IMG/VR virus record: IMGVR_UViG_3300042472_000140
Coordinates: 1-61,147 of that record
Reading direction: 5' to 3' (one strand)
Length of the DNA stretch: 61,147 nucleotides
DNA from: a virus
Lineage: Duplodnaviria; Caudoviricetes
Below, in pieces: positions 4,633 through 32,356 of this stretch; the first letter of the stretch is position 1; each line of letters opens with the position of its first letter. The notes under the pieces are model-generated. The model did no database searches. It worked only from the letters and a program-made list of their open reading frames with translations, and was not told where the DNA came from. Made by a program: the position numbers and the translations under genes.

Positions 4633-4734
4633 GATAAAAAAATACCCTCTAGGGTTCAGCGTGGACGTGCTTACTTCCTAAAGGGTTTTATAATGTCTTA
4701 CATTCTGCGTCCACTCAGATGATATACAAATATA
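4633..4734 (-). promoter_or_regulatory. Promoter and structured 5' leader of the HNH gene
   Basis: TATATTTG -7 box (4727-4734); stem 4644-4654/4676-4686 followed by a U tract; loop 4661-4667 complementary to 4708-4714. Confidence 0.6.
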
Positions 4735-5009
4735 ATGATTTTTTTTAATATCATATATGCGGAGTGTTTATATAATATATACGTTTCAGGTAGAGTCGAC
4801 GCATAGGAAAACGGATTACAAACAGCATGGGGGGTGCTGATTTCCAGTCTTTCCGTCAGATTTTCTAGCTTTTTGTGTGGGGTGCAGTCCTACCTAGCTA
4901 CAGTCACGTTGTATGGTGGTTCCGTTGTGCTGTAGGTATCATGTTACGACCTATTGACCTACCGTTCGTCTGACTGACTAACTGTCTGTTGTTCAGCGAT
5001 GTAAGTTCT

Positions 5010-5037: not shown

Positions 5038-5358
5038 GTCAACCTATCGCACTGTCTGTCAGTCTGTTAGTGAATCCATACGTACGTGTGTACGTGTGCG
5101 CATACGTGCGTGTGTGTTTCTTATATTCTTGGGACGAATGCGCTACATCCCTTTGTTTATGCGTGTTTAGGCATGGAATAACATCACCTCCCCATCTCCC
5201 CACATTAAATGTGAGTTTATCTGTCTGTCTGTTGTTATATCTGTCAATCGTTGCTGTGACTGAGTTGTAGCGTTATTGGTACTTGGTGGGCTACGTAGTT
5301 CTACTTAGATCGATCTACGTAGTTATACGTATTTTTAAACTTATATCAAAAAAAAGTA

Positions 5359-5394: not shown

Positions 5395-5976
5395 TCAAGC
5401 AAACGAGCTTACTTAGTTTTTGAAATCCTTTATATATAACAAGCGACACGGGATAGGGAGTTAGCGTTAGGAGATGGTTAGTCTAGTCAGCGTATGCGAC
5501 AGAGCTAGTGAAAGTATTAACCACCGAGACACCTCTACTTAGAACGATTATCCAATGCGATGTTGAGGCAGTAAGACCCCAAAGACATCAGTTATAACAA
5601 AAGAACAATAAATAATACGTTACACCTCGGTAGTATGATTATTTAGTTTGAAGTGTGAAACCTTAAGGCATGACGGAAGCCCCAGTCTTAAGCAACTAGC
5701 GAGTAAAACCGTTCATCAGGATTTTAAACCGTTCATCACAATTGGTGAAGATAAGCGAAAGTGAATGACTAGATTTGAAATGTGTTAGCAATCGAGCTAC
5801 ACTATACGAAGGAGCGTAATCTCTGAACCCATTGATAGTATTGTAAGGGACAACAACAAATACTCAAAGTCTTGCCTAAGTAGATTGAATAGGTGCACAA
5901 GTTACATGGAGAAAGCGAGAGCTGACGGAAGTAATCGAGTAATGGAGGATAAAAACCAAGCATCGAAAAAAGGCTA
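5395..5976 (+). ncRNA. Candidate large structured ncRNA (about 580 nt; ROOL/GOLLD-class size)
   Basis: No credible ORF between the promoter and the hammerhead; purine-rich; nested complementary segments (GGATA/TATCC, TGGTTAG/TTAACCA, CTAG/CTAG, GTC/GAC, GAGG/CCTC). Confidence 0.55.
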
Positions 5977-6020
5977 TACAGATGTGTGTCTGTACTGATG
6001 AGTTCAAAAGAACGAAAGCT
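5972..6020 (+). ncRNA. Hammerhead ribozyme, type III topology
   Basis: GGC-UA / stem I UACAGA-UCUGUA / CUGAUGA / stem II GUUC-AAAA-GAAC / GAAA / GCU; predicted cut after A5976; stem III is short. Confidence 0.8.
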
Positions 6021-6041: not shown

Positions 6042-6281
6042 ATGAATGAATTATCATTAAAAGCGTTACTACTTGACACCATTACTTATTTAAAGTTTGG
6101 TACTCATTTATCAAGTAACTACAAGTCAACAAAGAAAGAGTTATGTATTCTTTTAGGACAGAAAACAAATATATCAGCTAGTCAGTTGTTGAATGGAATC
6201 GGACTTGTTTACAAGGATAACGGCAAAGAAGTTGAATTTTGGGCAACAATAGACAAGTTTGATGCTGAGAAATATTTATAG
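6042..6281 (+). CDS. Early hypothetical protein
   Basis: ATG 6042 after an A-rich leader; the track start at 5982 lies inside the ribozyme. Confidence 0.7.
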   Translation: MNELSLKALLLDTITYLKFGTHLSSNYKSTKKELCILLGQKTNISASQLLNGIGLVYKDNGKEVEFWATIDKFDAEKYL

Positions 6282-6308
6282 TAATTAACCACCAAACACC
6301 ACCACACC

Positions 6309-6416
6309 ATGAGCGTAAAAATCATTAGAATTGAGGGGAAGTTCGAGGTAATCGGATACTTTCAAGAAGGCGTACTAGTAAGAGAGCGCAAGAGATTAGT
6401 AAGAGACTGGAGATAA
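6309..6416 (+). CDS. Small hypothetical protein (35 aa)
   Basis: Manual translation MSVKIIRIEGKFEVIGYF... Confidence 0.45.
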   Translation: MSVKIIRIEGKFEVIGYFQEGVLVRERKRLVRDWR

Positions 6417-6508
6417 TCGGTCACCCTTAGGGGTGATTGAATGGTCTCATATCAAAACAATACCTTAAGAAGATAGATTAAGTAATTAACGTATAAAAAT
6501 TAGAAATT

Positions 6509-6724
6509 ATGAAAACGATACAAATTAGAATATCAAGAAGTTATTTTAAAGAAACATTTATAGATGTAGAAGTTGAAGACGGAGAATTAGATATAGATTT
6601 TTTAGTTAGTGATAAAGAAATAGATAAACGTTTAGAGGATGCGATTGAAATTGCTGATTTGATAGACGGAGAAACTGACTATGAATGGACAGATGAAACA
6701 GATAATAACGGTGGACATTTATGA
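6509..6724 (+). CDS. Acidic early hypothetical protein
   Basis: ORF track; very D/E-rich. Confidence 0.7.
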   Translation: MKTIQIRISRSYFKETFIDVEVEDGELDIDFLVSDKEIDKRLEDAIEIADLIDGETDYEWTDETDNNGGHL

Positions 6725-6867
6725 AATTTGAACTTCAATTTAAGACCTCAAACGGCTTGTACAAGAACTTCAGTAAGACGTTCAACAGCGAGAAACATCG
6801 GGACAACTTCATCGACAAGATGGAGCGAGAGTTCGGATGGAAATTAATAGGAATGACTAAAAACTAG
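6721..6867 (+). CDS. Small hypothetical protein (48 aa)
   Basis: Manual translation MKFELQFKTSNG...; ATGA overlap with upstream stop. Confidence 0.65.
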   Translation: MKFELQFKTSNGLYKNFSKTFNSEKHRDNFIDKMEREFGWKLIGMTKN

Positions 6868-6872
6868 AAATT

Positions 6873-7073
6873 ATGATAAAATTAACATCGCATTACAGTA
6901 AATTGCCAATACTAATAAATGAGTCACACATCGAGAGTGTATCTATTCAGGTTAACAACAGTAGGTCGGCATCCTTAGTTTATTATATAACCACTATACA
7001 CATGTCATCAGGTCTTATTTTATATGTAAAAGAGACTGTAGAACAAATTGAAGAACTTTTAAAAAATCAATAA
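6873..7073 (+). CDS. Small protein resembling the FlbD family
   Basis: MIKLT...LINESHIESV...TIHMSSG...VKETVEQI pattern. Confidence 0.55.
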   Translation: MIKLTSHYSKLPILINESHIESVSIQVNNSRSASLVYYITTIHMSSGLILYVKETVEQIEELLKNQ

Positions 7074-7075
7074 TT

Positions 7076-7282
7076 ATGAACGGAAAGATTCACGACAGCG
7101 TAGGCTTCACTAAGGTAGATGGAGCGATAAGACAGTTAACCTTAAGAGAGAGGTTACAGCAGATTATTAACTTGGGACAGCCGAGCGACATTAAGGGCGT
7201 TCGAACTACAGTAAGAGACGCAGAGATTGCGCTCGAGCGATTCAAGAGTAGTTTACTCGACGAGGAGATAGGAAGAGATTAA
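7076..7282 (+). CDS. Early hypothetical protein
   Basis: ORF track; its stop codon forms part of hammerhead stem I. Confidence 0.7.
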   Translation: MNGKIHDSVGFTKVDGAIRQLTLRERLQQIINLGQPSDIKGVRTTVRDAEIALERFKSSLLDEEIGRD

Positions 7283-7334
7283 CTGACGAGCTTTAGATAA
7301 GCGAAACGGCACAAGAGATTGTGCTGTCTTAATC
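7277..7334 (+). ncRNA. Hammerhead ribozyme, type I topology
   Basis: GAUUAA / CUGACGA / GCUU-UAGAU-AAGC / GAAA / CGGCACAA-GAGA-UUGUGCUG / UC / UUAAUC; GUC triplet, predicted cut after C7328. Confidence 0.92.
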
Positions 7335-7350
7335 AATTAAAACACACACC

Positions 7351-7605
7351 ATGAAGAACACAATAAGCAAGAAATACATAATTGACTACATCACTAGCAA
7401 CTATGGACCAATGAAGCACGACATCTATAGAATGTACTATGCTATAATATCAACATCTAAGGTATTCAAGCTAGACAAGAAGAGTCTGTTCCATTACATC
7501 ATCGAGCGGACTGACGCAATATTAGGAGCTACATCGTACGGATTTGATACTGCGTACGGTAGAGAGATTAGAGAGAGATTTGAGTATGAATATTATAACA
7601 ACTAG
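7351..7605 (+). CDS. Early hypothetical protein
   Basis: ORF track. Confidence 0.7.
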   Translation: MKNTISKKYIIDYITSNYGPMKHDIYRMYYAIISTSKVFKLDKKSLFHYIIERTDAILGATSYGFDTAYGREIRERFEYEYYNN

Positions 7606-7610
7606 GAGTT

Positions 7611-7784
7611 ATGGAAGAGACATTCAATTTAACAGCAACAGACACACGTGGGGACAACGTTCCTCACGTGGTGTTTACTGGCACAGCGCATGAATGTAAG
7701 GTAGCATTCATGTTCAAGTGTGCCTACTCTTTTCACAATCATAAGACGTTCAGTAGTGTTCACTATAACATCGTGAAGTCATGA
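7611..7784 (+). CDS. Small hypothetical protein (57 aa)
   Basis: Manual translation MEETFNLTATDTRG...; fills the gap in the operon. Confidence 0.55.
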   Translation: MEETFNLTATDTRGDNVPHVVFTGTAHECKVAFMFKCAYSFHNHKTFSSVHYNIVKS

Positions 7785-7869
7785 TAGTGTTTATCTTTGT
7801 ATTGAAGTACGCCATGTGGTTCATGGTGTTCTTGTTATCGGTAGATTATTTATCTAAAAAATTAAAGTG

Positions 7870-8073
7870 ATGAGCAGATTTATGTGTGCAGTAAGACCTT
7901 ACGGAACCTCAGAGGAGTGGGTGTTACAAGAGTTAGAAGGAAAGACAGACGAGATGAGAGCTATGGAGATTCACAGCTACTTAAAACGGATGGGCGTTAG
8001 TTATTACACGGTGACACACTACTCGGAGCGTAGTGTTATAGACATAGCAATTGAGGACATTTATTTAAATTAA
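7870..8073 (+). CDS. Early hypothetical protein
   Basis: ORF track (ATG 7870). Confidence 0.65.
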   Translation: MSRFMCAVRPYGTSEEWVLQELEGKTDEMRAMEIHSYLKRMGVSYYTVTHYSERSVIDIAIEDIYLN

Positions 8074-8078
8074 AAGAG

Positions 8079-8447
8079 ATGAAAGCAAATCCAGAATTTA
8101 AGGCAATTTATAATCCTTACAACAGACAGTTACTAGTGTCTTACGGTGACACAGTTACAGAGTACTTCTTCCAAGACGTTGAAGAGTGGGTAAAGATTAG
8201 TTTCAATGGAGACGATAATCACCCAAACTACTTACACGTTCAGTTAGACTATGACGAGTGTATGCAACTTATTTTCTATCCACGAGTAGATGGTAGTGAA
8301 GATTTAAATGAGCGTATTGGTACTTATTTTAATTCAGGAGATGATGATAACCCTGACAATATCACAATCATTCATACTGAAGAACAGTTGGAAGAAGCTA
8401 AAGAGAGAATATTCGGTTTAAAATATAATCAAACAACAATAGAATGA
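8079..8447 (+). CDS. Early hypothetical protein
   Basis: ORF track, operon context. Confidence 0.75.
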   Translation: MKANPEFKAIYNPYNRQLLVSYGDTVTEYFFQDVEEWVKISFNGDDNHPNYLHVQLDYDECMQLIFYPRVDGSEDLNERIGTYFNSGDDDNPDNITIIHTEEQLEEAKERIFGLKYNQTTIE

Positions 8448-8815
8448 AAAACTTACACGACTTCGTTGCGTCCATCGTTGAGAACGGTGGGGCAACATTT
8501 AACTTGGTAACGGGCACTAGTCCTACGACTGGCTTTGTGGTATCAGAGAGAGGATTTGAGGACATAACTCCAATCTTTGGTGACGACGTTACCAAGCAGA
8601 TAATCACGACGTATGCCGTATCAGAGTTCATCAAGAAGAACGGATTTGAGCTGAACAACCCTGAGAACTTCTTAGGCGGATGGATAGACGACGGTGAGCT
8701 GTTCTTGGACATCTCAAGGGTGTACGACAACGAGCACGACGCCTTGCGCATCGCAGTAGAGAACGGACAGAGGGCATACTATAGTATTGACAACGATAAA
8801 ACTACGGAGCTATGA
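8444..8815 (+). CDS. Hypothetical phage protein
   Basis: ORF track; GGAT...G-x-x-VS...LGGW...LDIS...Q-x-AYY pattern. Confidence 0.75.
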   Translation: MKNLHDFVASIVENGGATFNLVTGTSPTTGFVVSERGFEDITPIFGDDVTKQIITTYAVSEFIKKNGFELNNPENFLGGWIDDGELFLDISRVYDNEHDALRIAVENGQRAYYSIDNDKTTEL

Positions 8816-10181: not shown

Positions 10182-10210
10182 GTAAGCTCCGACGGTAGGT
10201 TAAACCGTCA

Positions 10211-10286
10211 GCTAGTAGCTCAGTGGGGAGAGCGTGTTGTTTATAGGTTAGGCAACGAATGACGGGCGTTCAATTCGTCCCTAGCA
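10211..10286 (+). tRNA. tRNA-like RNA with short acceptor stem and aberrant anticodon arm (no anticodon assignable)
   Basis: D arm GCTC/GAGC; T arm GGGCG-TTCAATT-CGTCC; 5-bp acceptor GCTAG/CTAGC; 8-bp anticodon stem with 5-nt loop; no CCA. Confidence 0.55.
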
Positions 10287-10340
10287 AAAAGTCTTCGTCA
10301 AGACTAAAGCCATCGTGTATTGTGCACGATGGCTATAATT

Positions 10341-11220: not shown

Positions 11221-11784
11221 ATGAAAAAAATTAGCACATTATTTAAGAAAGACCCACAAGATTTGGGCAGAGTAATCAATGAAGTGAACCCTGAAAATGA
11301 GTGGGGGTTTACAGATGGAATACCAACACGAAAGTATGATGGAACTGCAACTGCTATAATTGATGGCGAACTTTACAAAAGATACGATGTGAAGAAAGGC
11401 AGACAAGTTCCTGATGGTGCAATACCTTGTCAAGAAGCTGATTTAATAACAGGACATCATCCACATTGGTTAAAATGTAGCCACGATAAAAACGAGGATA
11501 AATACTTTTTTGAAGGATTTAATTCACTTGCTGAACTTGGCACGGTTGAAGATGGTACTTATGAATTGATTGGTGAAAAAGTACAAGGCAACCCCGAAAA
11601 AATAGAAGGACATCATTTGGTAAAACACGGAGCAAAAGTTTTGCAAGGATTGATTAACCCAATGACATTTGAAAACTTAAAGGAATACTTGGAGAAAGTA
11701 GATATTGAGGGAATTGTATTTCATCATAAGTCCTATGGTCATATGTGTAAATTACGAAAATCTGATTTTGGAATACGGAGGTAG
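11221..11784 (+). CDS. Cassette 3 ORF: RNA-ligase-like nucleotidyltransferase (DUF5565/Rlig1-like)
   Basis: Ligase motifs I KYDG, III YELIG, IV EGIVF, V CKLR. Confidence 0.7.
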   Translation: MKKISTLFKKDPQDLGRVINEVNPENEWGFTDGIPTRKYDGTATAIIDGELYKRYDVKKGRQVPDGAIPCQEADLITGHHPHWLKCSHDKNEDKYFFEGFNSLAELGTVEDGTYELIGEKVQGNPEKIEGHHLVKHGAKVLQGLINPMTFENLKEYLEKVDIEGIVFHHKSYGHMCKLRKSDFGIRR

Positions 11785-15617: not shown

Positions 15618-16434
15618 TGGGGTTGCCCCTCTGTTCTTAGGGACGGACGGGCTGACGGACGCACAACAGCGCACGTTTGTTAAGCTGAACGAGAGACACA
15701 CGTCATGGCTCAACGAGACAGACGAGAAGGCTAAGAAGAAGCTAGAGCTGACGTCTAACATGCACGACGAACTGACGGTTCTAACAATAGGATTGGATGC
15801 CTACAATCGTGGGGAGATACTACTATCTCAAGGAGCCAAGACCTTTATCGAGGGTATCATAGACAAGGAGCTGTACCACTACAACGACCACGTGTCTACC
15901 AAGGAGATGGACAAGGGATCCGACACGACCGTTGAGGATGCAGCCATCGAGGTGTACAATCGTGTGTTCTTTACCGACCATAAGAAGTTACTTGCTGGAG
16001 ATGAATACGCAGAGCTATCTTACAACAGCTTGGTAGGACACCCTGACATCGTGTGTAAGGACACTAAGATGGTTAAGGATGCTAAGTCCTCGTGGACCAA
16101 GAAGACGTTCCCTAAGCGACCAGAGTATAACGGCACGTACGAGTGGCAGGTCAAGTCTTACCTATACATGCTCATCGGCATGACGGGTGATAACTCATGG
16201 AGAACTGGAGAGGTGTTCCATGCACTAGTTGATACTCCTGAGGGACTTGTTCCTGAGTGGGAGAACGACAGCCTTCACGTGATGTCTGACGTCCCTGACC
16301 ACATGCGTGTGACTGTGACAAAGGTAGAACTGACGGACGCTGACATCAAGCACATTAACATCAGGATAGTTGCTGCAAGAAAGTACGCAGACATTTATAG
16401 AAATGAAATCTTAAATAAAAACAAATATGTTTAA
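15601..16434 (+). CDS. PD-(D/E)XK exonuclease (lambda exo/YqaJ-like)
   Basis: FRAS N-terminus; GHPD, KDAK and YEWQ-x-x-x-Y motifs. Confidence 0.8.
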   Translation: MQFRASGVAPLFLGTDGLTDAQQRTFVKLNERHTSWLNETDEKAKKKLELTSNMHDELTVLTIGLDAYNRGEILLSQGAKTFIEGIIDKELYHYNDHVSTKEMDKGSDTTVEDAAIEVYNRVFFTDHKKLLAGDEYAELSYNSLVGHPDIVCKDTKMVKDAKSSWTKKTFPKRPEYNGTYEWQVKSYLYMLIGMTGDNSWRTGEVFHALVDTPEGLVPEWENDSLHVMSDVPDHMRVTVTKVELTDADIKHINIRIVAARKYADIYRNEILNKNKYV

Positions 16435-23614: not shown

Positions 23615-23655
23615 AATGTCCAGTTAATTTCAAACTTAACTGGACATTCTTTTTT
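23615..23655. terminator. Terminator at the convergence of the two genome arms
   Basis: Perfect 13-bp stem AATGTCCAGTTAA/TTAACTGGACATT followed by a T run. Confidence 0.8.
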
Positions 23656-26600
23656 ACTTCCTCTTTGAATACTTCTTATCGTATATGTATAAGGCTTGCT
23701 TTGATAACTTCATCTTAGCTTTACCCATAACTTCAGATAGTATTTTCTTTTCTTCACTATCAAGTTCTGATCCGTATCTGTTATAAAGTCTTAACGCTTG
23801 AACTTCAGGAGTTTCTTCATACAGTATATCAAGTATCGACCTATCGATGTTCATGTTCTTGATGTATGCATAATATTTTTTAGCGTACTTCTCCTGGTCT
23901 TTTTTCTCAAAGTTAGTTTTTATTAAATCTACTAACTCACCATTTGACAACTCCTTCCCGTCCTTATATATATTCTTGATGGTGTTGTACACCTTCTGTT
24001 CTTTGTTATATATATCTGTCTCGATAATCATCTCTTGATTTTCTATCTTGTCCTCTTCCTTATATCTGATGTTATCTTTGTTAGTAGTTCTCTTTAACTT
24101 CCTAGCTGAAGCATCAAATACATTACTAAAGGCATCTGAGAATTCAGCTCCGTATCCATCCTTATTAAAGAATCCATTCACAGATGCATAAAATATAGAT
24201 ATCATAGGGTTAGTATTCTCACTTGTAACTATCTTCTCTATAGCCGCCTTAGTTCTAATAGGAGACAACCCTAGACTAGGTGCTATCTTTTTATATATCT
24301 CCTCTACCTTATCGTCGTACATTCCCTCCGCACTAGCTGCTATCTTTTTATCTCTAGGTTCTCTAAAGATTTTCTCCCCAGTAAATGAATCCCAGTTAAA
24401 ACTATACGTTAGAAGTCCAGATATAAGTGGATTTCTAGATGCAATATCAGACGGTGAGAATGGAGTTGATGCCGATATAGATTTATTTATCACCTCTTGG
24501 TCTACATCATATTTAATTCCTGCCTCTGATAGTAAGTACTTGTACGTGAACTGCTCTGCCACAGTAGACATTACAGATAGAACTGGTAATTTTTTTACTC
24601 TGTAGTACTCGTACTCTCCATCCTTATCCTTCTTACCAGTAAATATTATATGGTATGTTGCCTTCTCGTAATCAGATAATGAATCTAACACCTCTAATAC
24701 TTTCTTCTTCTCTTCTTCGTCATCTCCAACTGATCTCATAAGTGCAGCTAAAGACAGTGCCGCTACTGATCCAGCCATTACTGCCGCTTGAACTAAGCTA
24801 GAAGTAAATCCTAGTGGGTTATTTTTAGCGTACTCAAGAGGTCTTCTAAATCCTTGCATGGATGCATTTAAGTATGGCATCACATTATCAGCCGTCTTAA
24901 CCCATGTCCCTCCCTGATTGAAGTCCATTGTCTCTCTAGCATTCCTTGTTGCCTCGTACATTATATCATCTAGTTCCTTAGCGTCAGGGTCTCTTCCGTT
25001 TTCTTTTTTGAATTTAGATATCTCGTCACCTTTTACTTTATCATAAACAGCAAGTCTAAACGCAAGTTCAGATTTTTCTCCTAGGTAGGACATGATGTTT
25101 CCGTAGCCAACTAATACCTTCTGACTGATATTTAGTATCTTATTTTTAGGAGACAGTGACTTCAATGCTCTAAGACCGTCGTTAGATAGAAAGTCCATAG
25201 CTCCACCATGCTCAACGTATTCGTTGTATATTACATTCTTTCTATTCTTAGTTGCTACTCCCTTCAAGAACTTTCTAACAAAGTCATAGCTTAACTGAGC
25301 ACCTCCAACTAGCTTGAACTTTGAGTACACATCAGAGAAGAATAATATGTTCTGGAAATCTACTGCTGTGTTACCAATAATGAACAACGGGTTACCTCCA
25401 GTCGCAAAGAACCTTAGTATTTTAGCTCCAGTTAATGTACCAATTAAATTAAGTGCCTGGTTTGAAGACTTAATATCTAACAGCTGTGTAGCATATTCAT
25501 CTTTAACTACTAGGTCCGTCTTCACTCCATTCTTAAAGAATGACACTATGCTGTACCCTATAGGCACATTATTTTGGTTGTACTTATACTGAATAGACCC
25601 AGTAGATGTCTGCTTTACTATAGGGTTATCTATTATGAATTCAGACATAGCGTCTCTCTGTTCTTGAGTTGCTCCATCAATAGCGTCACTGAACTCATTT
25701 AGCATCTTATTCTCGAACGCTCGTCCTTCAACAGACATAACGTTCAACATAAGGAGCCACTTAGAGTCAAATATTATAGCGTTCTCGTTACTGTCAGTAA
25801 GAGCCATTATATCTTTCTTACTAACTCCTAACTTACTAGCCTCTCTATCTACAGTAGCTGGGTCTAAGTTATCTCCAATGATGTACTTAATAGTTCTAAT
25901 AGGAGAGTACTCTATATCTCTCAGGTTTATGTAAGTCTCTTCGTTTATTCTACCTGACTCGTACAGCTTCTTTAAGTTTTCTGAGAACACACCAAAATAT
26001 TTAGTAGCTCTTTCGCTTAAGTCGTTGAATTTCTTTTCACCTATCTTATTCTTTATAGCATCTAAATCTTTTAAAGCCTTCACCTCAGAGTAACCGTCCA
26101 TACCAGTGTATGGCTCTGCTCCTTGCTTGGCTCTACTCTCATTAATAGCTACCATACGTCTTGCGTATATGATATCATCAAGTGTATCTAAATCATTCTT
26201 TTTCAAATCTTTATAGATATCAGCCTCAGCATTTTTAAATCTGTAGTTAGCAAAACCACTAGCTCCAGCCTTGTTGACTAATAAGTTGTAAGCTCTTATT
26301 GACTCCTTGCTTCCGATGCCTTTAATTAATCTCTTAATGTCGGACTGTCTATCAATAAATTTATTTCTTATTGCTCTAATTCTATCTCTTATAGTCAGCT
26401 TCTTCTGTCTAGCCATAAGTTCTTTCTGACTAGCTTCCCTTATCTTACTCACAGTGACGTCACCAGTGTCTGGCTCCATTGCGTCGTTGATATTCTTGTC
26501 AGAGTATCCCTGGTCCTTTAAGTACTGACGGATAGCAGCGTCAGAGAACCCTTGGTCCTTAGTCAACTTAACTATGTCGTTGATGGTCTTAGGCTTCTGC

Positions 26601-29600
26601 TTACGTGGAGATATACTCTCTTCGATACCAGTAACCTCTTCAGCTATCTGCTTACGTGGTGTGATCTGCTTGGATATGTTCTTAGGGAACCTCTTGAAGT
26701 TTATGCCTCCACCTACTCCGTCACCTTTGAACGTGATCATGTCACCATCGATACTAGTTATCTTACCCTTAGACCCGTACACCTCAACGTCATCTCCTAC
26801 CTTGTAAGTTTCTTCAGCTATAGGCTTCATAGATACATTGTCCTTAGAAGCCTCAAGCGACATTGTAGTCTGTGCTCTGAGTTCGTTATTTCTCCATCTA
26901 GCAACGACCATGTCATACCCGTTCTCGTTAGCGACCTGAGTTATAAATGCCAACTGGTAGTTAGGGCTGAATGATTGTGAAGGACGTGCAACCTCGAATC
27001 TTTTCTTAGCCTCGTCATAGAAGTTTTCTGGATCACTATTAAAGTCGTACACCTTACCGTTAGGAACAAGGACAGTGTGTAGTACGTTACCAACACCTGG
27101 CTCAACCTGGTTGTCCATCGTGTAGTACATCGCAAGTCCTCCAACAGCAGATAAGGCTCCACCTTCTTCCTTCCCAGTGATGATATTCTCTCCAGTTCCA
27201 GGCTTAATTACATCTCTATTGTCGTTTGAGTAGTGATGGAACACGAAGTTTCCGCTCTTATCTTCAGTCAACTTGTTTGACAGCTCTGGAGCAAGTTGCT
27301 TTCTAGAAGAAATTTCTTTTATCCCTATGCCATAAGGAGCAACAACTTGAGATTGCTCAGATCGAGACATATCATCACGATATTTATCCTTTATTTCAGA
27401 AGGCATTATATCATAAGAATTAATTTTCTTATCTGGAACACCTACAACAGAACCTAATATATCTGTTTCATATGTAGAATGTTTAGATTTTTCACCTAAT
27501 TTATCAGCCTTTAAAACTAACATAATATCTCCCATCTCAAAATTATTATCTTGATAGAATCCATCACGTAAATCATTTGGATCAACAAATGCATTATATT
27601 TTTCTAATACTTTTTTTGCTAGAGTATTTTTAGTTTGTTGTTCATTTATAGCTATAATAAAATTCTTTCTATCAGCCCCCATAAATAGGTCTTCATAAGA
27701 ATTATATTTTTCTAATATAGATTTTATCTTAGATGTTGGTTTAGATTCTAGTAATTCTTTTTTAAAGTTATTAAATTCAATAGCTCCTTCAATTCTTCTT
27801 CTAATTAAATTAGTAACAGTCTTGTTGAATAATTTTGATCTCTGAGGGGATCCACTTATAATAAATATATAATCAGATTTAGCTATATTATTATCTAAAG
27901 TTTTCTTTTTAGCACCAGAAGCCCATATTACATTATTACTTCTATTCTCAGGATCTAACGCAAACGATGGTCCAGCATCTAAGAAATGTTCTCCATTTAA
28001 TACTGAATCAAAATAATTTCCTCTTCCTAATTGATCAGCAACCCAAAACCAAACCTTTTGTTTTTTAGATGAAATATCAGATATTAATGAATCAATATCA
28101 ATAATATCTTCTTTCGTTACAAAAGTTAATTTTTGATCTTTACTTACTTTTACTTGTTTTCTTGGTTCAGTAGATTCAACAATATTAGTTGTAACACCAG
28201 TTATTGACATCATATTAATATCAGCCTCACTAATCACCTTACCCTTAGCTACCTTTCTAGCTATAGTGTTGAGCATGTCGTAGGTCTCGTTTCTGTTGAA
28301 CGGATCTAATTTAGATATCTTAGCCAACTTATCTATCCATCTGAAGATAGTATCCTTAACAGATGTAGAAAATGAATTATAGTTCTCAGCTAATACACCT
28401 ACTAGTTCAGCTAGTTTCTCTTCGTTCTGAATATTCTCATCGTAGTTAGATATAAAGTCATTCAATTTTTTATTTACATCTACATCAACTTTAAGCCATA
28501 TAGCTTCAATCATTCGTTTAGTTATATCAGCAGCATTTTTATCTGTCTTAACCTTATTTATTAAGATAGCATGGAATACCTCGTGAGCTACAGTTCTATT
28601 GTTAGCTGACGTTCCATTAATATGTATGGTATTCGTTTTTGCATTAAACTCACCATTTGATGATTGCTTCAGTCCTTCTTCTTTTGTAGCAGCTCTATAT
28701 GACTCATCTGTATCATGAACTATAAACTTAGTGCCTGGTATAACCTTAGATACTGCCTTAGCTGCTCTAGCTACTGCCTTAGATATTTTCTTATTAACTA
28801 TAGTATACGCCTTCTGGTCAATCTCTTGATCTGTTCCAGACAATAACTGTCCGATAGCCTCAACCTCTTGCTCTACGGTAGGACCTTCTTTTGTAGCTGG
28901 TAACAAAGGAGTTATCAGCTTGTCATACTTGTCGTATATCTCGTTGTACTTCGTTAGGTCTTCAGGAGTCATTAGGGTCTTATCTACTTCACCGTTAACC
29001 TTGTAGTCTTCTATGTTAGGTATAACGTCAGATAACTCCGCTTGTTCTTCTGCTCTTAAGGTTGCTACTTGGTCTTGTTCAGTAGGTTGAACTGCTGATG
29101 CCTTATCTTGTAAATTAAACAATTCTGACTGTGCAACATCAAATTTATCTGCCTTAGAACGAAAGTCTGGATTAGCCATAACTTCCTCTTCAGTTAAACC
29201 TTGATCTTCCAACTCAGCTTGCAGGATGGTTTTTTCATCCCAAAGAGAATCAACTTCTGCCTGCTTAGCGTCTACTTCTTCTTGCTGTACTTCGCTTGTG
29301 ACAACGCTATCGCCACGATCTGCTTCTGGCTGCGTGGTTTCCCGTTTGCCCCCTTCGCTGATCCCGACTTCTTGTTGTCCTTCACCAGTTCTCTGATATT
29401 CGCTTGTACTGACTTCTTGGACGTTGCTTTCTTTAGTGGCATCTTCTGATATCTTTGTTAGTTCGTTATTTATCTCGGCAACTCTTGCCTTCTGTGATGC
29501 GACAAGGTTTTCATCCTTGCCAGCAATTTCTTTTTCTAGTTTATTTCTTTCTAATGTAAGAGTTAATGCACTCTTTAAATTCTCGCCAGTTATATTATCA

Positions 29601-32356
29601 GGAATTTTATTAAACAGACCTTGCACATCATTCATAGCATCTAACTGGTTCTGAGCTTCTGACTTTGTTATTTTTCCAGAAAGCATTCCAGTCTTTAACT
29701 TTGCAATAAAAATTTTCTTAATCTCTGAATCTTCTGCAATTGATTTTAGAAAATCTACATCTTTAGCATTATATAGGCTTATGTCTCCATTTCTAATCTT
29801 CTCATATGACGTACCAACAGATGTCATAACCATACCTCCTATAGCTTCAGCTGCTGCGTCTTCTAATACCATAGCTGCACCTTCACTAAAAGAGTCAGGA
29901 GTATCAAAGTATTCTCCTTGAGATAAGTCTGTTGCAAGTTTCCCGTCAGTCTTGTCTTTGTATATGTTGTATAGACCCTTCAGTCCAATGTCTAATACAA
30001 GAGACTGAGTTGCACCAGTCTCTGCCTCTGCTAGTGTACCTCCTATTACTTTTAATCCAAACTTAGCTATATTTGATTTTATTTCTTTTTCAAGAACACT
30101 CTCAAATACTTTTTTGGTTGTATTTCCACCTATCTTACCAGCTACTGAAAGTAATGATTTAGCTATTAATGATTTAGCTAATGGGTTCTTTGACATCATT
30201 GTAGTTACACCAATATTCTCTAAGATACCCATACCTATAGCATAAGGAACAGTAATTATAGATCTATCCTTCACAGATGTAGTTTCAAAGTCAGGATCAT
30301 TAAGCATCTCATCCTCAATAGAACTATAAGCCTGAGTCCCTAATGCTGATATTCTAGCAGCAGCTCCACCTGGAACAAGCATAGCTGGTAATGATTCAGC
30401 AACTCCAGCTAATGCTTTCTCAAAGAAACCACGATCAGCTGATTTTCTATATTCTTCTGTTGTACTTGATGTTCCTAATGTTTCAATTAATGATGATTTA
30501 ACAACTTCTTTAACTTGTTTTTGTCTTTTATTAGCAAGATAATTTATAGATTCTTCTTTACTGTATTTTTTATCTTTTAAATAATTTTTTATTTGAGGGT
30601 CTAGCATTTCATAATCAAGATCTCCTGAATAAGATGCAGCTAATCCAACTGGAAATTCTATTATTTTAGATACTCCACTAACAGTAGAGTTAAGCATGTT
30701 ACCCCAAAACCCACCAATTTTTTCTTTTGTCAATAAGTATTTTCCAGCTACAGTCTCTAATTTTTTCATTTCAGACACTACTGCATTACCACTTTTCTTT
30801 ATTTCTAAATTTTTATTATCTATATCTTCAGCTCGCTGTATAAATTCAGATGACATTGCGTCGTACTGTTCTTTATCAATTTGTCCAGAGTTTACTTTTT
30901 GATTAAATTCATTCAGATCTTTTTGATATTGTGCAGTTTCTGTTTCAATCTTTTTATATGAATTGCTTACATCATTTAACTGTATGTTATAGTTATTAGT
31001 TTGATCTTGTATAAAGTTATTAGATAAATAAGAATCTATTTGTTGTTTAATAACTTTCTTTTGATCATCAGTTTTTGCTTGCTTTAATGAGTAGTAAAGT
31101 TTATCAATTTGATCTGTTCTATCTTTTAATTGTTTAGAAACATCTTTTTTATATATTTTATATATATCAGAATTATAAAAATTACTTATTTCATCTTTAG
31201 TTCTATTTATTTCACTTTGATTTCCAGTATTACCAGCTGTATTTCTATTGCGTCTTAAATCATTTAAATAAATGTCAATTTCCTTCTTTTTACTGTAAAA
31301 GTCTAATGATTTAAAATCATCTACATATTGATCAGACTTTAAATATTCATTTAATTTTTTATTTCCTTCTGCAATTGCTGAGTTTCTTGCCTTATTTATT
31401 GAATCAGATAATGATCCATCTGGAAGTGGTATATCAGATATTTTTTGTCTTAATTCTTTTATATTATTATTTTTTGTAGATTTATCTGATTTATTTAAAT
31501 CCAAGAATGTTCTCAGTTTTAAAGCCTCTGTTGGGTTAGATTCATCTAAACCTACCTCCATAGTTTTACCATTCTTAGCGGTAACAGTAACGTAGTCTGT
31601 ACCCATGCCAGATTGCTCAAATGAGAACCCTAAGTTACCGTACTTGTTTTGTAAATATGGAACTACAGTCTCCTCTGTATTTGATACTAACTTAGAATTT
31701 ATATCAGCAAATTTAGGAGTATTATCTTCTACAACATTTTGTAGTACTGTAGGTATTTTTACTTTTTTCTTAAATTGATTATTTAGAGCAGTTATAGCCG
31801 TAGCGTCAGTTAACGTGGTCCACTTTGTAGCAGTAGGCTGCATTCGCTCCCAGTTACCATTATATACTCTGTACTTATTAGTTTCTTTACCAGGGACTCC
31901 AACAAAAACTTCTTCTATATCTGATGCTCCAGCATTCTGATTGAAGTGCTTATTAAGTGCTGCTACTCTAGCTGGATCAGTTATATTTATTTTTACACTG
32001 ATAGGAGCTGATACTGGTTTATTTCCGACTACTAATCCAGTTCCTGCATCTTCCTTCCATATTGGTGTACCAGTAGATTCATCTAATATATACTTCTTAT
32101 CTCCCTTCCCAGGATACCCAGTGAATACTTGTTGTTTAGCCTTTCCTCCAGACGATACCAAAGGCTTTTGAGCCGTCTTTGGCTTTGATGTAGCCAATGT
32201 AGATTCCAGTAGATCTGTAACGGGCGAAAATATAACACCCTTCTTCTTTGGAGCAGGCGTAGCTTCTTTTTTTTTTACTGGTTCTAATATATCACTTGGT
32301 TTAGGAAGAGATGATTTATTCAATATATCACCTGGTTTTGGTAAGTTATTTGGCAT
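23654..32356 (-). CDS. Giant virion/ejection-type polyvalent protein (2900 aa) with zincin motif and LPD38-like C-terminus
   Basis: HEVFH...EEKLAE; C-terminal ARETMDF-x-QG...PYLNASMQG region; last gene of the virion module. Confidence 0.75.
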   Translation of the reverse strand: MPNNLPKPGDILNKSSLPKPSDILEPVKKKEATPAPKKKGVIFSPVTDLLESTLATSKPKTAQKPLVSSGGKAKQQVFTGYPGKGDKKYILDESTGTPIWKEDAGTGLVVGNKPVSAPISVKINITDPARVAALNKHFNQNAGASDIEEVFVGVPGKETNKYRVYNGNWERMQPTATKWTTLTDATAITALNNQFKKKVKIPTVLQNVVEDNTPKFADINSKLVSNTEETVVPYLQNKYGNLGFSFEQSGMGTDYVTVTAKNGKTMEVGLDESNPTEALKLRTFLDLNKSDKSTKNNNIKELRQKISDIPLPDGSLSDSINKARNSAIAEGNKKLNEYLKSDQYVDDFKSLDFYSKKKEIDIYLNDLRRNRNTAGNTGNQSEINRTKDEISNFYNSDIYKIYKKDVSKQLKDRTDQIDKLYYSLKQAKTDDQKKVIKQQIDSYLSNNFIQDQTNNYNIQLNDVSNSYKKIETETAQYQKDLNEFNQKVNSGQIDKEQYDAMSSEFIQRAEDIDNKNLEIKKSGNAVVSEMKKLETVAGKYLLTKEKIGGFWGNMLNSTVSGVSKIIEFPVGLAASYSGDLDYEMLDPQIKNYLKDKKYSKEESINYLANKRQKQVKEVVKSSLIETLGTSSTTEEYRKSADRGFFEKALAGVAESLPAMLVPGGAAARISALGTQAYSSIEDEMLNDPDFETTSVKDRSIITVPYAIGMGILENIGVTTMMSKNPLAKSLIAKSLLSVAGKIGGNTTKKVFESVLEKEIKSNIAKFGLKVIGGTLAEAETGATQSLVLDIGLKGLYNIYKDKTDGKLATDLSQGEYFDTPDSFSEGAAMVLEDAAAEAIGGMVMTSVGTSYEKIRNGDISLYNAKDVDFLKSIAEDSEIKKIFIAKLKTGMLSGKITKSEAQNQLDAMNDVQGLFNKIPDNITGENLKSALTLTLERNKLEKEIAGKDENLVASQKARVAEINNELTKISEDATKESNVQEVSTSEYQRTGEGQQEVGISEGGKRETTQPEADRGDSVVTSEVQQEEVDAKQAEVDSLWDEKTILQAELEDQGLTEEEVMANPDFRSKADKFDVAQSELFNLQDKASAVQPTEQDQVATLRAEEQAELSDVIPNIEDYKVNGEVDKTLMTPEDLTKYNEIYDKYDKLITPLLPATKEGPTVEQEVEAIGQLLSGTDQEIDQKAYTIVNKKISKAVARAAKAVSKVIPGTKFIVHDTDESYRAATKEEGLKQSSNGEFNAKTNTIHINGTSANNRTVAHEVFHAILINKVKTDKNAADITKRMIEAIWLKVDVDVNKKLNDFISNYDENIQNEEKLAELVGVLAENYNSFSTSVKDTIFRWIDKLAKISKLDPFNRNETYDMLNTIARKVAKGKVISEADINMMSITGVTTNIVESTEPRKQVKVSKDQKLTFVTKEDIIDIDSLISDISSKKQKVWFWVADQLGRGNYFDSVLNGEHFLDAGPSFALDPENRSNNVIWASGAKKKTLDNNIAKSDYIFIISGSPQRSKLFNKTVTNLIRRRIEGAIEFNNFKKELLESKPTSKIKSILEKYNSYEDLFMGADRKNFIIAINEQQTKNTLAKKVLEKYNAFVDPNDLRDGFYQDNNFEMGDIMLVLKADKLGEKSKHSTYETDILGSVVGVPDKKINSYDIMPSEIKDKYRDDMSRSEQSQVVAPYGIGIKEISSRKQLAPELSNKLTEDKSGNFVFHHYSNDNRDVIKPGTGENIITGKEEGGALSAVGGLAMYYTMDNQVEPGVGNVLHTVLVPNGKVYDFNSDPENFYDEAKKRFEVARPSQSFSPNYQLAFITQVANENGYDMVVARWRNNELRAQTTMSLEASKDNVSMKPIAEETYKVGDDVEVYGSKGKITSIDGDMITFKGDGVGGGINFKRFPKNISKQITPRKQIAEEVTGIEESISPRKQKPKTINDIVKLTKDQGFSDAAIRQYLKDQGYSDKNINDAMEPDTGDVTVSKIREASQKELMARQKKLTIRDRIRAIRNKFIDRQSDIKRLIKGIGSKESIRAYNLLVNKAGASGFANYRFKNAEADIYKDLKKNDLDTLDDIIYARRMVAINESRAKQGAEPYTGMDGYSEVKALKDLDAIKNKIGEKKFNDLSERATKYFGVFSENLKKLYESGRINEETYINLRDIEYSPIRTIKYIIGDNLDPATVDREASKLGVSKKDIMALTDSNENAIIFDSKWLLMLNVMSVEGRAFENKMLNEFSDAIDGATQEQRDAMSEFIIDNPIVKQTSTGSIQYKYNQNNVPIGYSIVSFFKNGVKTDLVVKDEYATQLLDIKSSNQALNLIGTLTGAKILRFFATGGNPLFIIGNTAVDFQNILFFSDVYSKFKLVGGAQLSYDFVRKFLKGVATKNRKNVIYNEYVEHGGAMDFLSNDGLRALKSLSPKNKILNISQKVLVGYGNIMSYLGEKSELAFRLAVYDKVKGDEISKFKKENGRDPDAKELDDIMYEATRNARETMDFNQGGTWVKTADNVMPYLNASMQGFRRPLEYAKNNPLGFTSSLVQAAVMAGSVAALSLAALMRSVGDDEEEKKKVLEVLDSLSDYEKATYHIIFTGKKDKDGEYEYYRVKKLPVLSVMSTVAEQFTYKYLLSEAGIKYDVDQEVINKSISASTPFSPSDIASRNPLISGLLTYSFNWDSFTGEKIFREPRDKKIAASAEGMYDDKVEEIYKKIAPSLGLSPIRTKAAIEKIVTSENTNPMISIFYASVNGFFNKDGYGAEFSDAFSNVFDASARKLKRTTNKDNIRYKEEDKIENQEMIIETDIYNKEQKVYNTIKNIYKDGKELSNGELVDLIKTNFEKKDQEKYAKKYYAYIKNMNIDRSILDILYEETPEVQALRLYNRYGSELDSEEKKILSEVMGKAKMKLSKQALYIYDKKYSKRK

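Follow-up and report, generated by a model that had tools for sequence, protein, structure and literature searches.

The junction between two small genes in the left arm of an uncultured lake phage raises the question of whether the message running across it carries an RNA that cuts itself and, if so, whether the cut is tied to translation of the upstream gene. The window, by which we mean the whole stretch analysed, is a virus record of 61,147 bp, complete and with direct terminal repeats (IMG/VR record IMGVR_UViG_3300042472_000140). On its + strand, an ORF of 68 aa (7076-7282) ends with the stop codon UAA at 7280-7282, and an ORF of 84 aa (7351-7605) opens with the ATG at 7351. An earlier, sequence-only reading had placed a type I hammerhead with all core nucleotides, three stems, a GAGA loop and a GUC triplet at this junction. 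These elements could be read directly from the letters, and the minimum free energy (MFE) fold agreed with them. On sequence grounds, 7277-7334 is a genuine type I hammerhead RNA, predicted to cut itself, between two small phage genes.

The element, hereafter HH2, spans 58 bases of the + strand (7277-7334), and the sequence, the MFE fold, the descriptor scan and the leave-one-out model described below all place it there. An unpaired A at 7276, conserved in the class, precedes stem I on its 5' side. The 5' strand of stem I, GAUUAA (7277-7282), ends in the UAA stop of the upstream ORF, as had been noticed earlier, and leads into the core nucleotides C3 U4 G5 A6 C7 G8 A9 (CUGACGA, 7283-7289). Stem II forms a hairpin (7290-7302) of 4 bp between GCUU (7290-7293) and AAGC (7299-7302), with G10.1-C11.1 as its basal pair and the loop UAGAU. 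The core nucleotides G12 A13 A14 (7303-7305) connect it to the stem III hairpin (7306-7327), which has 9 bp including one G-U pair, runs from A7306-U7327 (A15.1-U16.1) to A7314-U7319, and is closed by the GAGA loop (7315-7318). C17 at 7328 completes the GUC triplet (7326-7328), and the 3' strand of stem I, UUAAUC (7329-7334), follows as the predicted 5'-OH end of the downstream RNA. The six pairs of stem I in the sequence are G7277-C7334, A7278-U7333, U7279-A7332, U7280-A7331, A7281-U7330 and A7282-U7329. The element is assigned to type I because its open helix is stem I, and it shows the features general to hammerheads of this type, namely the type I element order, the conserved core, and A15.1-U16.1 followed by H17 (C7328).

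The MFE fold of the 71 nt from 7270 to 7340 was exactly the three-way junction (-16.9 kcal/mol, z -2.3); in a 241-nt context, stem I was missing from the MFE fold, and stems II and III were retained in the centroid. The position of the cut, after C17 (H17), follows from the hammerhead consensus. With C17 at 7328 and the next ATG at 7351, the cut is thus predicted between 7328 and 7329, 22 nt ahead of the ATG, exactly as the sequence-only reading had it. The rest of this 22-nt leader is AAUUAAAACACACACC (7335-7350), the first base of which is the A conserved in the class. Contigs of four lake DNA runs aligned to 6800-7800 showed no base difference in the motif, so that no population covariation could be read from them, and one short contig from these runs contained the hammerhead of another phage. 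None of the sequencing runs listed for this stretch is recorded as RNA.

We scanned both strands of the window with descriptors of the three hammerhead topologies, using loose stems of at least 4/3/3-4 bp. The real window gave two matches, both on the + strand: the type I motif at 7277-7334 and a type III motif at 5972-6020 (HH1). The earlier description of the former as the second hammerhead of this region therefore holds, with the type III motif, also a sub-threshold match of Rfam Hammerhead_3, as the first. When the whole window was shuffled 300 times with dinucleotide composition kept, five descriptor sites appeared in four shuffles (no type I, two type II and three type III), a chance rate of ~0.017 loose motifs per shuffled genome, and none of the 300 shuffles held a site with stems of at least 6/4/4 bp. 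A leave-one-out covariance model, R2, built from 120 other phage rows, scored HH2 at 61.5 bits with an E-value of 1.3e-12, which is rough, like those of all our own covariance models, owing to a shortened calibration. HH2 was the sole match of R2 in the window at E<=1, and a covariance model that included the window sequence gave it 62.1 bits.

Rfam 15 reported no hammerhead anywhere in the window at gathering score. The Hammerhead_1 scan that had been proposed as a check came out negative, as RF00163 (cut-off 34 bits) had no match in the window even at E<=10; its topology and core are the same as those of HH2, with HH2 scoring below the reach of the model. The top Rfam score at HH2 was a sub-threshold one of 31.7 bits for RF03152, RAGATH-1-hammerhead (cut-off 56.3 bits). 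RF03152 shares the type I element order with HH2, whereas the consensus shown by cmscan combines a stem II of a single pair with a hairpin upstream. We rejected membership of HH2 in RAGATH-1 on the score, on its stem II of 4 bp and on the upstream-hairpin columns, which were flagged as non-pairing. For 17 members of the class described below, in five loci, there was likewise no Rfam match at gathering score. RF00163 gave four sub-threshold matches (25.1-30.2 bits, cut-off 34) for these 17 members and none at gathering score, indicating that the family model misses the class.

The class itself was delineated with two search patterns. Pattern 1, in which the core and three pairs of stem I were fixed, returned at least 120 rows from IMG/VR, and many contigs among the matches listed held 2-4 copies. 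Our own scan of 128 loci (1.1 Mb), which included locus L001 and the loci of seven relatives, gave 166 sites of type I and 7 of type III, distributed over 99 loci, among the matches listed. From the matches listed, 121 distinct rows were aligned. All core columns except N7 were invariant in 121 of 121 of these rows from the matches listed, and two-sided changes occurred at 14 of the 16 stem pairs in the same alignment of listed matches. Paired cells amounted to 99.3% in these 121 listed rows, as opposed to 29-36% with the partners slid by 1-3 columns; the rows had been chosen by a pairing-demanding scan, and part of the 99.3% is a product of that choice.

Pattern 2 specified only the core, the U..AU of loop II, CGAAAC and GUC, leaving stems I and II free, and again returned at least 120 rows, from which we analysed a sample of 80 loci with 87 distinct matches among those listed. 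The unspecified stem I was exactly 6 bp long in 85 of these 87 listed matches and the unspecified stem II 4 bp long in 86, and stem III had at least 4 bp in 85. Among the listed members with a six-bp stem I, an A stood on both sides of the stem in 84/84, and the first base of the stem was G in 79/84. HH2 has the same build: a stem I of 6 bp flanked by A7276 and A7335 with G7277-C7334 as its outermost pair, a stem II of 4 bp with the loop UAGAU of the form U-N-N-A-U, and a significant match to the model built without the window sequence. The conservation of the flanking A's and of loop II presumably reflects a tertiary contact that loop II makes with the end of stem I. As judged by both patterns, the class appears sharply defined, very common in viral contigs and poorly catalogued, with HH2 as an ordinary member. 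In six contigs among the matches listed (L009, L086, L113, L019, L021 and L028), 4-6 class hammerheads lay at a spacing of 300-1500 nt. Within each of these multi-copy contigs, every hammerhead preceded one and the same leader and ribosome site, particular to that contig, which looks like a repeated expression cassette.

Members of the class always lay between genes on the same strand, with the cut shortly ahead of the next start codon, among the matches listed. Measured from the cut to the next ATG opening at least 40 codons, which 81 of the 85 listed members had, the median distance was 28 nt (interquartile range 23-38 nt). HH2 is placed in the same way, with ORFs of the same strand on both sides, and its 22-nt leader is at the short end of the distribution found among the matches listed. 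An upstream ORF, called as the longest stop-to-stop frame of at least 60 codons ending nearby, was found for 68 of the 85 members among the matches listed. It ended inside the 5' part of the ribozyme in 45 of these 68 listed cases. The stop was the final stem I triplet in 12 of them, the core UGA in 12 and a UAG that spans the conserved A-G in 11, and it lay deeper in the 5' part in 10. It ended before the motif in the other 23 of the listed cases, within 13 nt in 22 of them and within 8 nt in 21. A stop triplet directly before C3 was present in 39 of 85 members (37 TAA and 2 TGA) in the sample with unconstrained stem I, among the matches listed. This triplet served as the stop of the upstream ORF in 12 of the 32 listed members that had it together with a long ORF, i.e., about one third. 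We rejected a selected stop codon in stem I, as a usage of 12/32 among the matches listed is about what reading-frame chance predicts. We read the overlap between stop codon and stem I as tight gene packing against a motif with stop triplets in two of its frames, and not as a sign of designed coupling. The overlap of the UAA with stem I in the window thus appears typical of the class and not special.

We searched for relatives of the locus at the nucleotide and protein levels. A nucleotide search with 6500-8500 against deposited phages gave no match, PHROGs and Pfam assigned no family to either flanking ORF (7076-7282 and 7351-7605), and ORF 7076-7282 had no confirmed relatives in viral contigs. 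The 84-aa protein of ORF 7351-7605 had relatives in seven viral contigs, with 47-83% identity. In three of these (L003, L004 and L006), a type I hammerhead closely resembling HH2 lay at a different gene junction, 1.4-2.7 kb upstream, where it followed directly after a stop codon and the motif ended 17-18 nt before an ATG. Compared with these three, the window has A-U instead of G-C as the second pair of stem I and C-G instead of A-U as that of stem II, both being compensatory changes. Between L003 and L006, conservation extended over the upstream gene, hammerhead and leader and gave way to divergence right after the ATG. The small genes of the block were reshuffled among the relatives in tblastx comparisons. 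When five whole related records were searched with the class model, three contained a single hammerhead each, and the other two, which include the closest relative (83% by the downstream protein), gave no match. HH2 therefore seems dispensable at the 7282/7351 junction, given that this closest relative has no class-model match. The closest relative (L002) has a hairpin and a T-run at the position held by HH2 in the window.

The companion motif HH1 (5972-6020, + strand) has the type III order. Its stem III pairs GGCU with AGCU, the predicted cut follows A5976, and the stem I hairpin (5977-5994, 7 bp), the core (5995-6001) and stem II (GUUC-AAAA-GAAC) come after it. The triplet at the predicted cut is CUA, not GUC, and Rfam Hammerhead_3 gave 25 bits at this site, below its cut-off of 48.5. 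The exact core and stem II of HH1 occurred 65 times in 64 viral stretches, many of them on contigs of ~60 kb. Among these 65 sites, 62 folded as type III with a stem I of 7 bp (6 or 8 in a few) and a G/U-rich loop, and stems I and III varied among the 62. HH1 ends 21 nt before the ATG at 6042, so that HH1 and HH2 bracket a block of six genes (6042-7282), and the leader sequence CAAUUAAAA is common to both. The genes here would be early ones by their position only. Two further large gaps in this gene block (6417-6508 and 7785-7866) showed stable hairpins on the + strand, at 6410-6448 (z -3.1) and 7805-7832 (z -2.9), and no ribozymes; the hairpin at 7805-7832 also matched a scan for terminator-like structures.

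Neither the leader at 7335-7350 nor that after HH1 contains a Shine-Dalgarno-like run. Bacteroidota make little use of Shine-Dalgarno pairing, and the leaders thus suggest a Bacteroidota host. The terminase was nearest to that of an uncultured podophage (66%), and phages of Flavobacterium, Cellulophaga, Tenacibaculum and Maribacter followed at ~44%.

These results are probably best explained by a constitutive, self-cleaving type I hammerhead that cuts a + strand polycistronic message shortly before the next gene. If the left-arm small-gene block yields a single polycistronic + strand RNA, this RNA would fold into the three-way junction and cut itself between C7328 and U7329. The upstream RNA would then contain ORF 7076-7282 complete with its stop codon, and its 3' end would consist of the hairpins of stems II and III and carry a 2',3'-cyclic phosphate. 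On the other side of the cut, the downstream RNA would begin with a 5'-OH and present a 22-nt unstructured, A/C-rich leader before ORF 7351-7605. The weak, AU-rich stem I of 6 bp would allow the two cleavage products to separate. Cleavage would be likely to uncouple the stability and translation of the adjacent gene blocks and to provide the downstream gene with a standard, context-free leader, although any benefit drawn from it is a matter of conjecture.

The sequence-only reading had interpreted HH2 as a self-processing element of the message whose cleavage may be coupled to translation through the stop codon in stem I. Self-processing fits both the position rules of the class and what passages of Perreault et al. 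(PMC3088659) describe, whereas the coupling draws no specific support from the 12 stops used among 32, about a frame-chance value among the matches listed. In its strongest form, the coupled reading says that ribosomes finishing ORF 7076-7282 melt stem I and the core, so that cleavage depends on upstream translation. The UAA at 7280-7282 is indeed part of stem I, and upstream ORFs end inside the ribozyme in 45 of 68 members and within 8 nt of it in most of the others, among the matches listed. Given the usual size of a ribosome footprint, the core would lie under a terminating ribosome in nearly every member. However, the stops show no frame preference, since the stem I stop was used in about one third of the listed members that had it, as expected by chance, the distribution of stops fits genes packed tightly against a motif rich in stop triplets, and the predicted cut is 46 nt beyond the stop, so that cleavage would never need the ribosome. 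We consider this form of coupling unlikely. With a ribosome terminating at the UAA, the core and part of stem II would be masked, so that any effect should be a delay of folding and cleavage, not a trigger. This would amount to a ribosome-gated switch in which heavy upstream translation holds back cleavage, and a pause in translation permits the cut and the release of a 5'-OH message. We likewise regard such a switch as doubtful; if it were real, it would tie the processing of a cistron to the translation of the one before it with no protein involved. A literature search for hammerheads together with a stop codon, ribosome, upstream gene and phage returned nothing beyond general reviews.

The shuffled gene order among the relatives, with the hammerhead at different junctions, points in another direction, as do the conservation of L003 and L006 up to the leader with divergence right after the ATG and the 2-6 near-identical copies in many contigs among the matches listed. 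All of these would fit a conserved element of 50-60 nt that, with its leader, is mainly selected as a shared boundary for the homologous exchange by which phages swap gene cassettes, or as a protective 3' structure, with cleavage being secondary. We think it quite improbable that this is the main role, as the catalytic core is invariant across the 121 rows from the matches listed while the stems covary, and the window has only one copy of each hammerhead type. An invariant core with covarying stems looks like selection for a working ribozyme, which neither a repeat nor a hairpin would need. The reading of HH2 as a chance look-alike or a decayed, inactive relic is very improbable. No shuffle in 300 produced such stems, the model that excluded the window still gave 61.5 bits, the core has no deviation, and HH2 shares with its class the A's on either side of stem I, the G-C pair that opens this stem and the UNNAU loop. 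The motif was also without a base difference across the contigs of the four lake runs. The missing Rfam match at gathering score and the closest relative without the element would fit a look-alike or relic, but they do not offset these results. Constitutive cleavage of the message just ahead of the downstream gene remains the preferred reading.

RNase III sites in T7 early mRNA and RiboJ-type insulators both cut a polycistronic message between cistrons, so that the upstream RNA ends in a hairpin and the downstream gene receives a defined leader. We propose that HH2 is a natural counterpart of the T7 sites and of engineered ribozyme insulators. In contrast to RNase III sites, HH2 would need no host enzyme, and the predicted ends are a 2',3'-cyclic phosphate and a 5'-OH rather than a 3'-OH and a 5'-phosphate.

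Hammerheads next to small genes have been on record for phages and prophages since 2011. In passages of their paper, Perreault et al. (2011; PMC3088659) report thousands of hammerheads with hundreds in bacteria, many of them near prophage integrases, and multiple ribozymes that flank single genes or short gene blocks. Native polycistronic fragments of ~2 kb were cleaved in vitro and one cluster was cleaved in E. coli, and the authors proposed in these passages that long phage transcripts are processed into shorter mRNAs. HH2 resembles the hammerheads described there in its canonical core and its location between same-strand small genes of unknown function. The presence of more than one hammerhead per gene block (HH1 and HH2) and the proposed processing of a long transcript are further points in common with these passages. 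Passages of PMC6155905 and PMC6765202 present the biological role of prokaryotic hammerheads as open and their link to phages as persistent. What these two and PMC3088659 stress in the passages compared is type II with pseudoknots and prophages of cultured bacteria, whereas HH2 is of type I and from an uncultured lake phage. Type I hammerheads are described as usual in bacteria and bacteriophages in part of a 2026 paper (PMC13725137).

HH2 alone is one more phage hammerhead, and the definition of its class is useful beyond this single site. Phage annotations are expected to miss the class, because Rfam 15 gave the tested members no match at gathering score. An example is the cultured Flavobacterium phage vB_FspP_elemoE_6-9C (NC_055854.1), in which a member of the class (52.3 bits) occupies 16299-16364 of the minus strand, between two genes of that strand; the site is recorded as a 35-aa hypothetical protein on the opposite strand. 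This RefSeq entry, gp65 (16289-16396, corresponding to 990-1097 of locus L218), is on the strand opposite to all its neighbours and is probably a spurious gene call. A literature search joining hammerheads with Flavobacterium, Cellulophaga or Bacteroidetes phages listed no paper that mentions hammerheads. As a cultured phage with a known host, NC_055854.1 would allow the role of phage hammerheads, a question of long standing, to be studied directly at the bench. The rules found here can serve as hypotheses: a 6-bp stem I flanked by A's, a loop II of the form UNNAU, an upstream ORF that stops within the motif or next to it, and a leader that is short and standard.

Several other features of the window were observed along the way. 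A 2900-aa ORF (23654-32356, - strand) had no sequence match in PHROG, Pfam or PDB. Its size recalls the virion RNA polymerases of N4-like phages; an N4-like reading of this ORF was a guess with no PHROG, Pfam or PDB support and was not used, and our search for literature joining hammerheads with N4-like phages found none. A 187-aa ORF at 11221-11784 (+) matched the PHROG annotation 'RNA ligase' (E 3e-67) and Pfam RLIG1 over part of its length (27.1 bits), and one may speculate that this RNA ligase-like protein is a partner of the RNA ends made by the ribozymes. A predicted 82-nt tRNA-Pro (anticodon AGG) with an insertion in the anticodon arm lies at 10208-10289 (+), with an Rfam tRNA score of 30.4 bits against a cut-off of 29. 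Finally, a long imperfect inverted repeat, GT/AC-rich and with 15-16 pairs, lies at 5077-5117 (+), downstream of the divergent region 4633-4988 and at the start of the + strand gene block.
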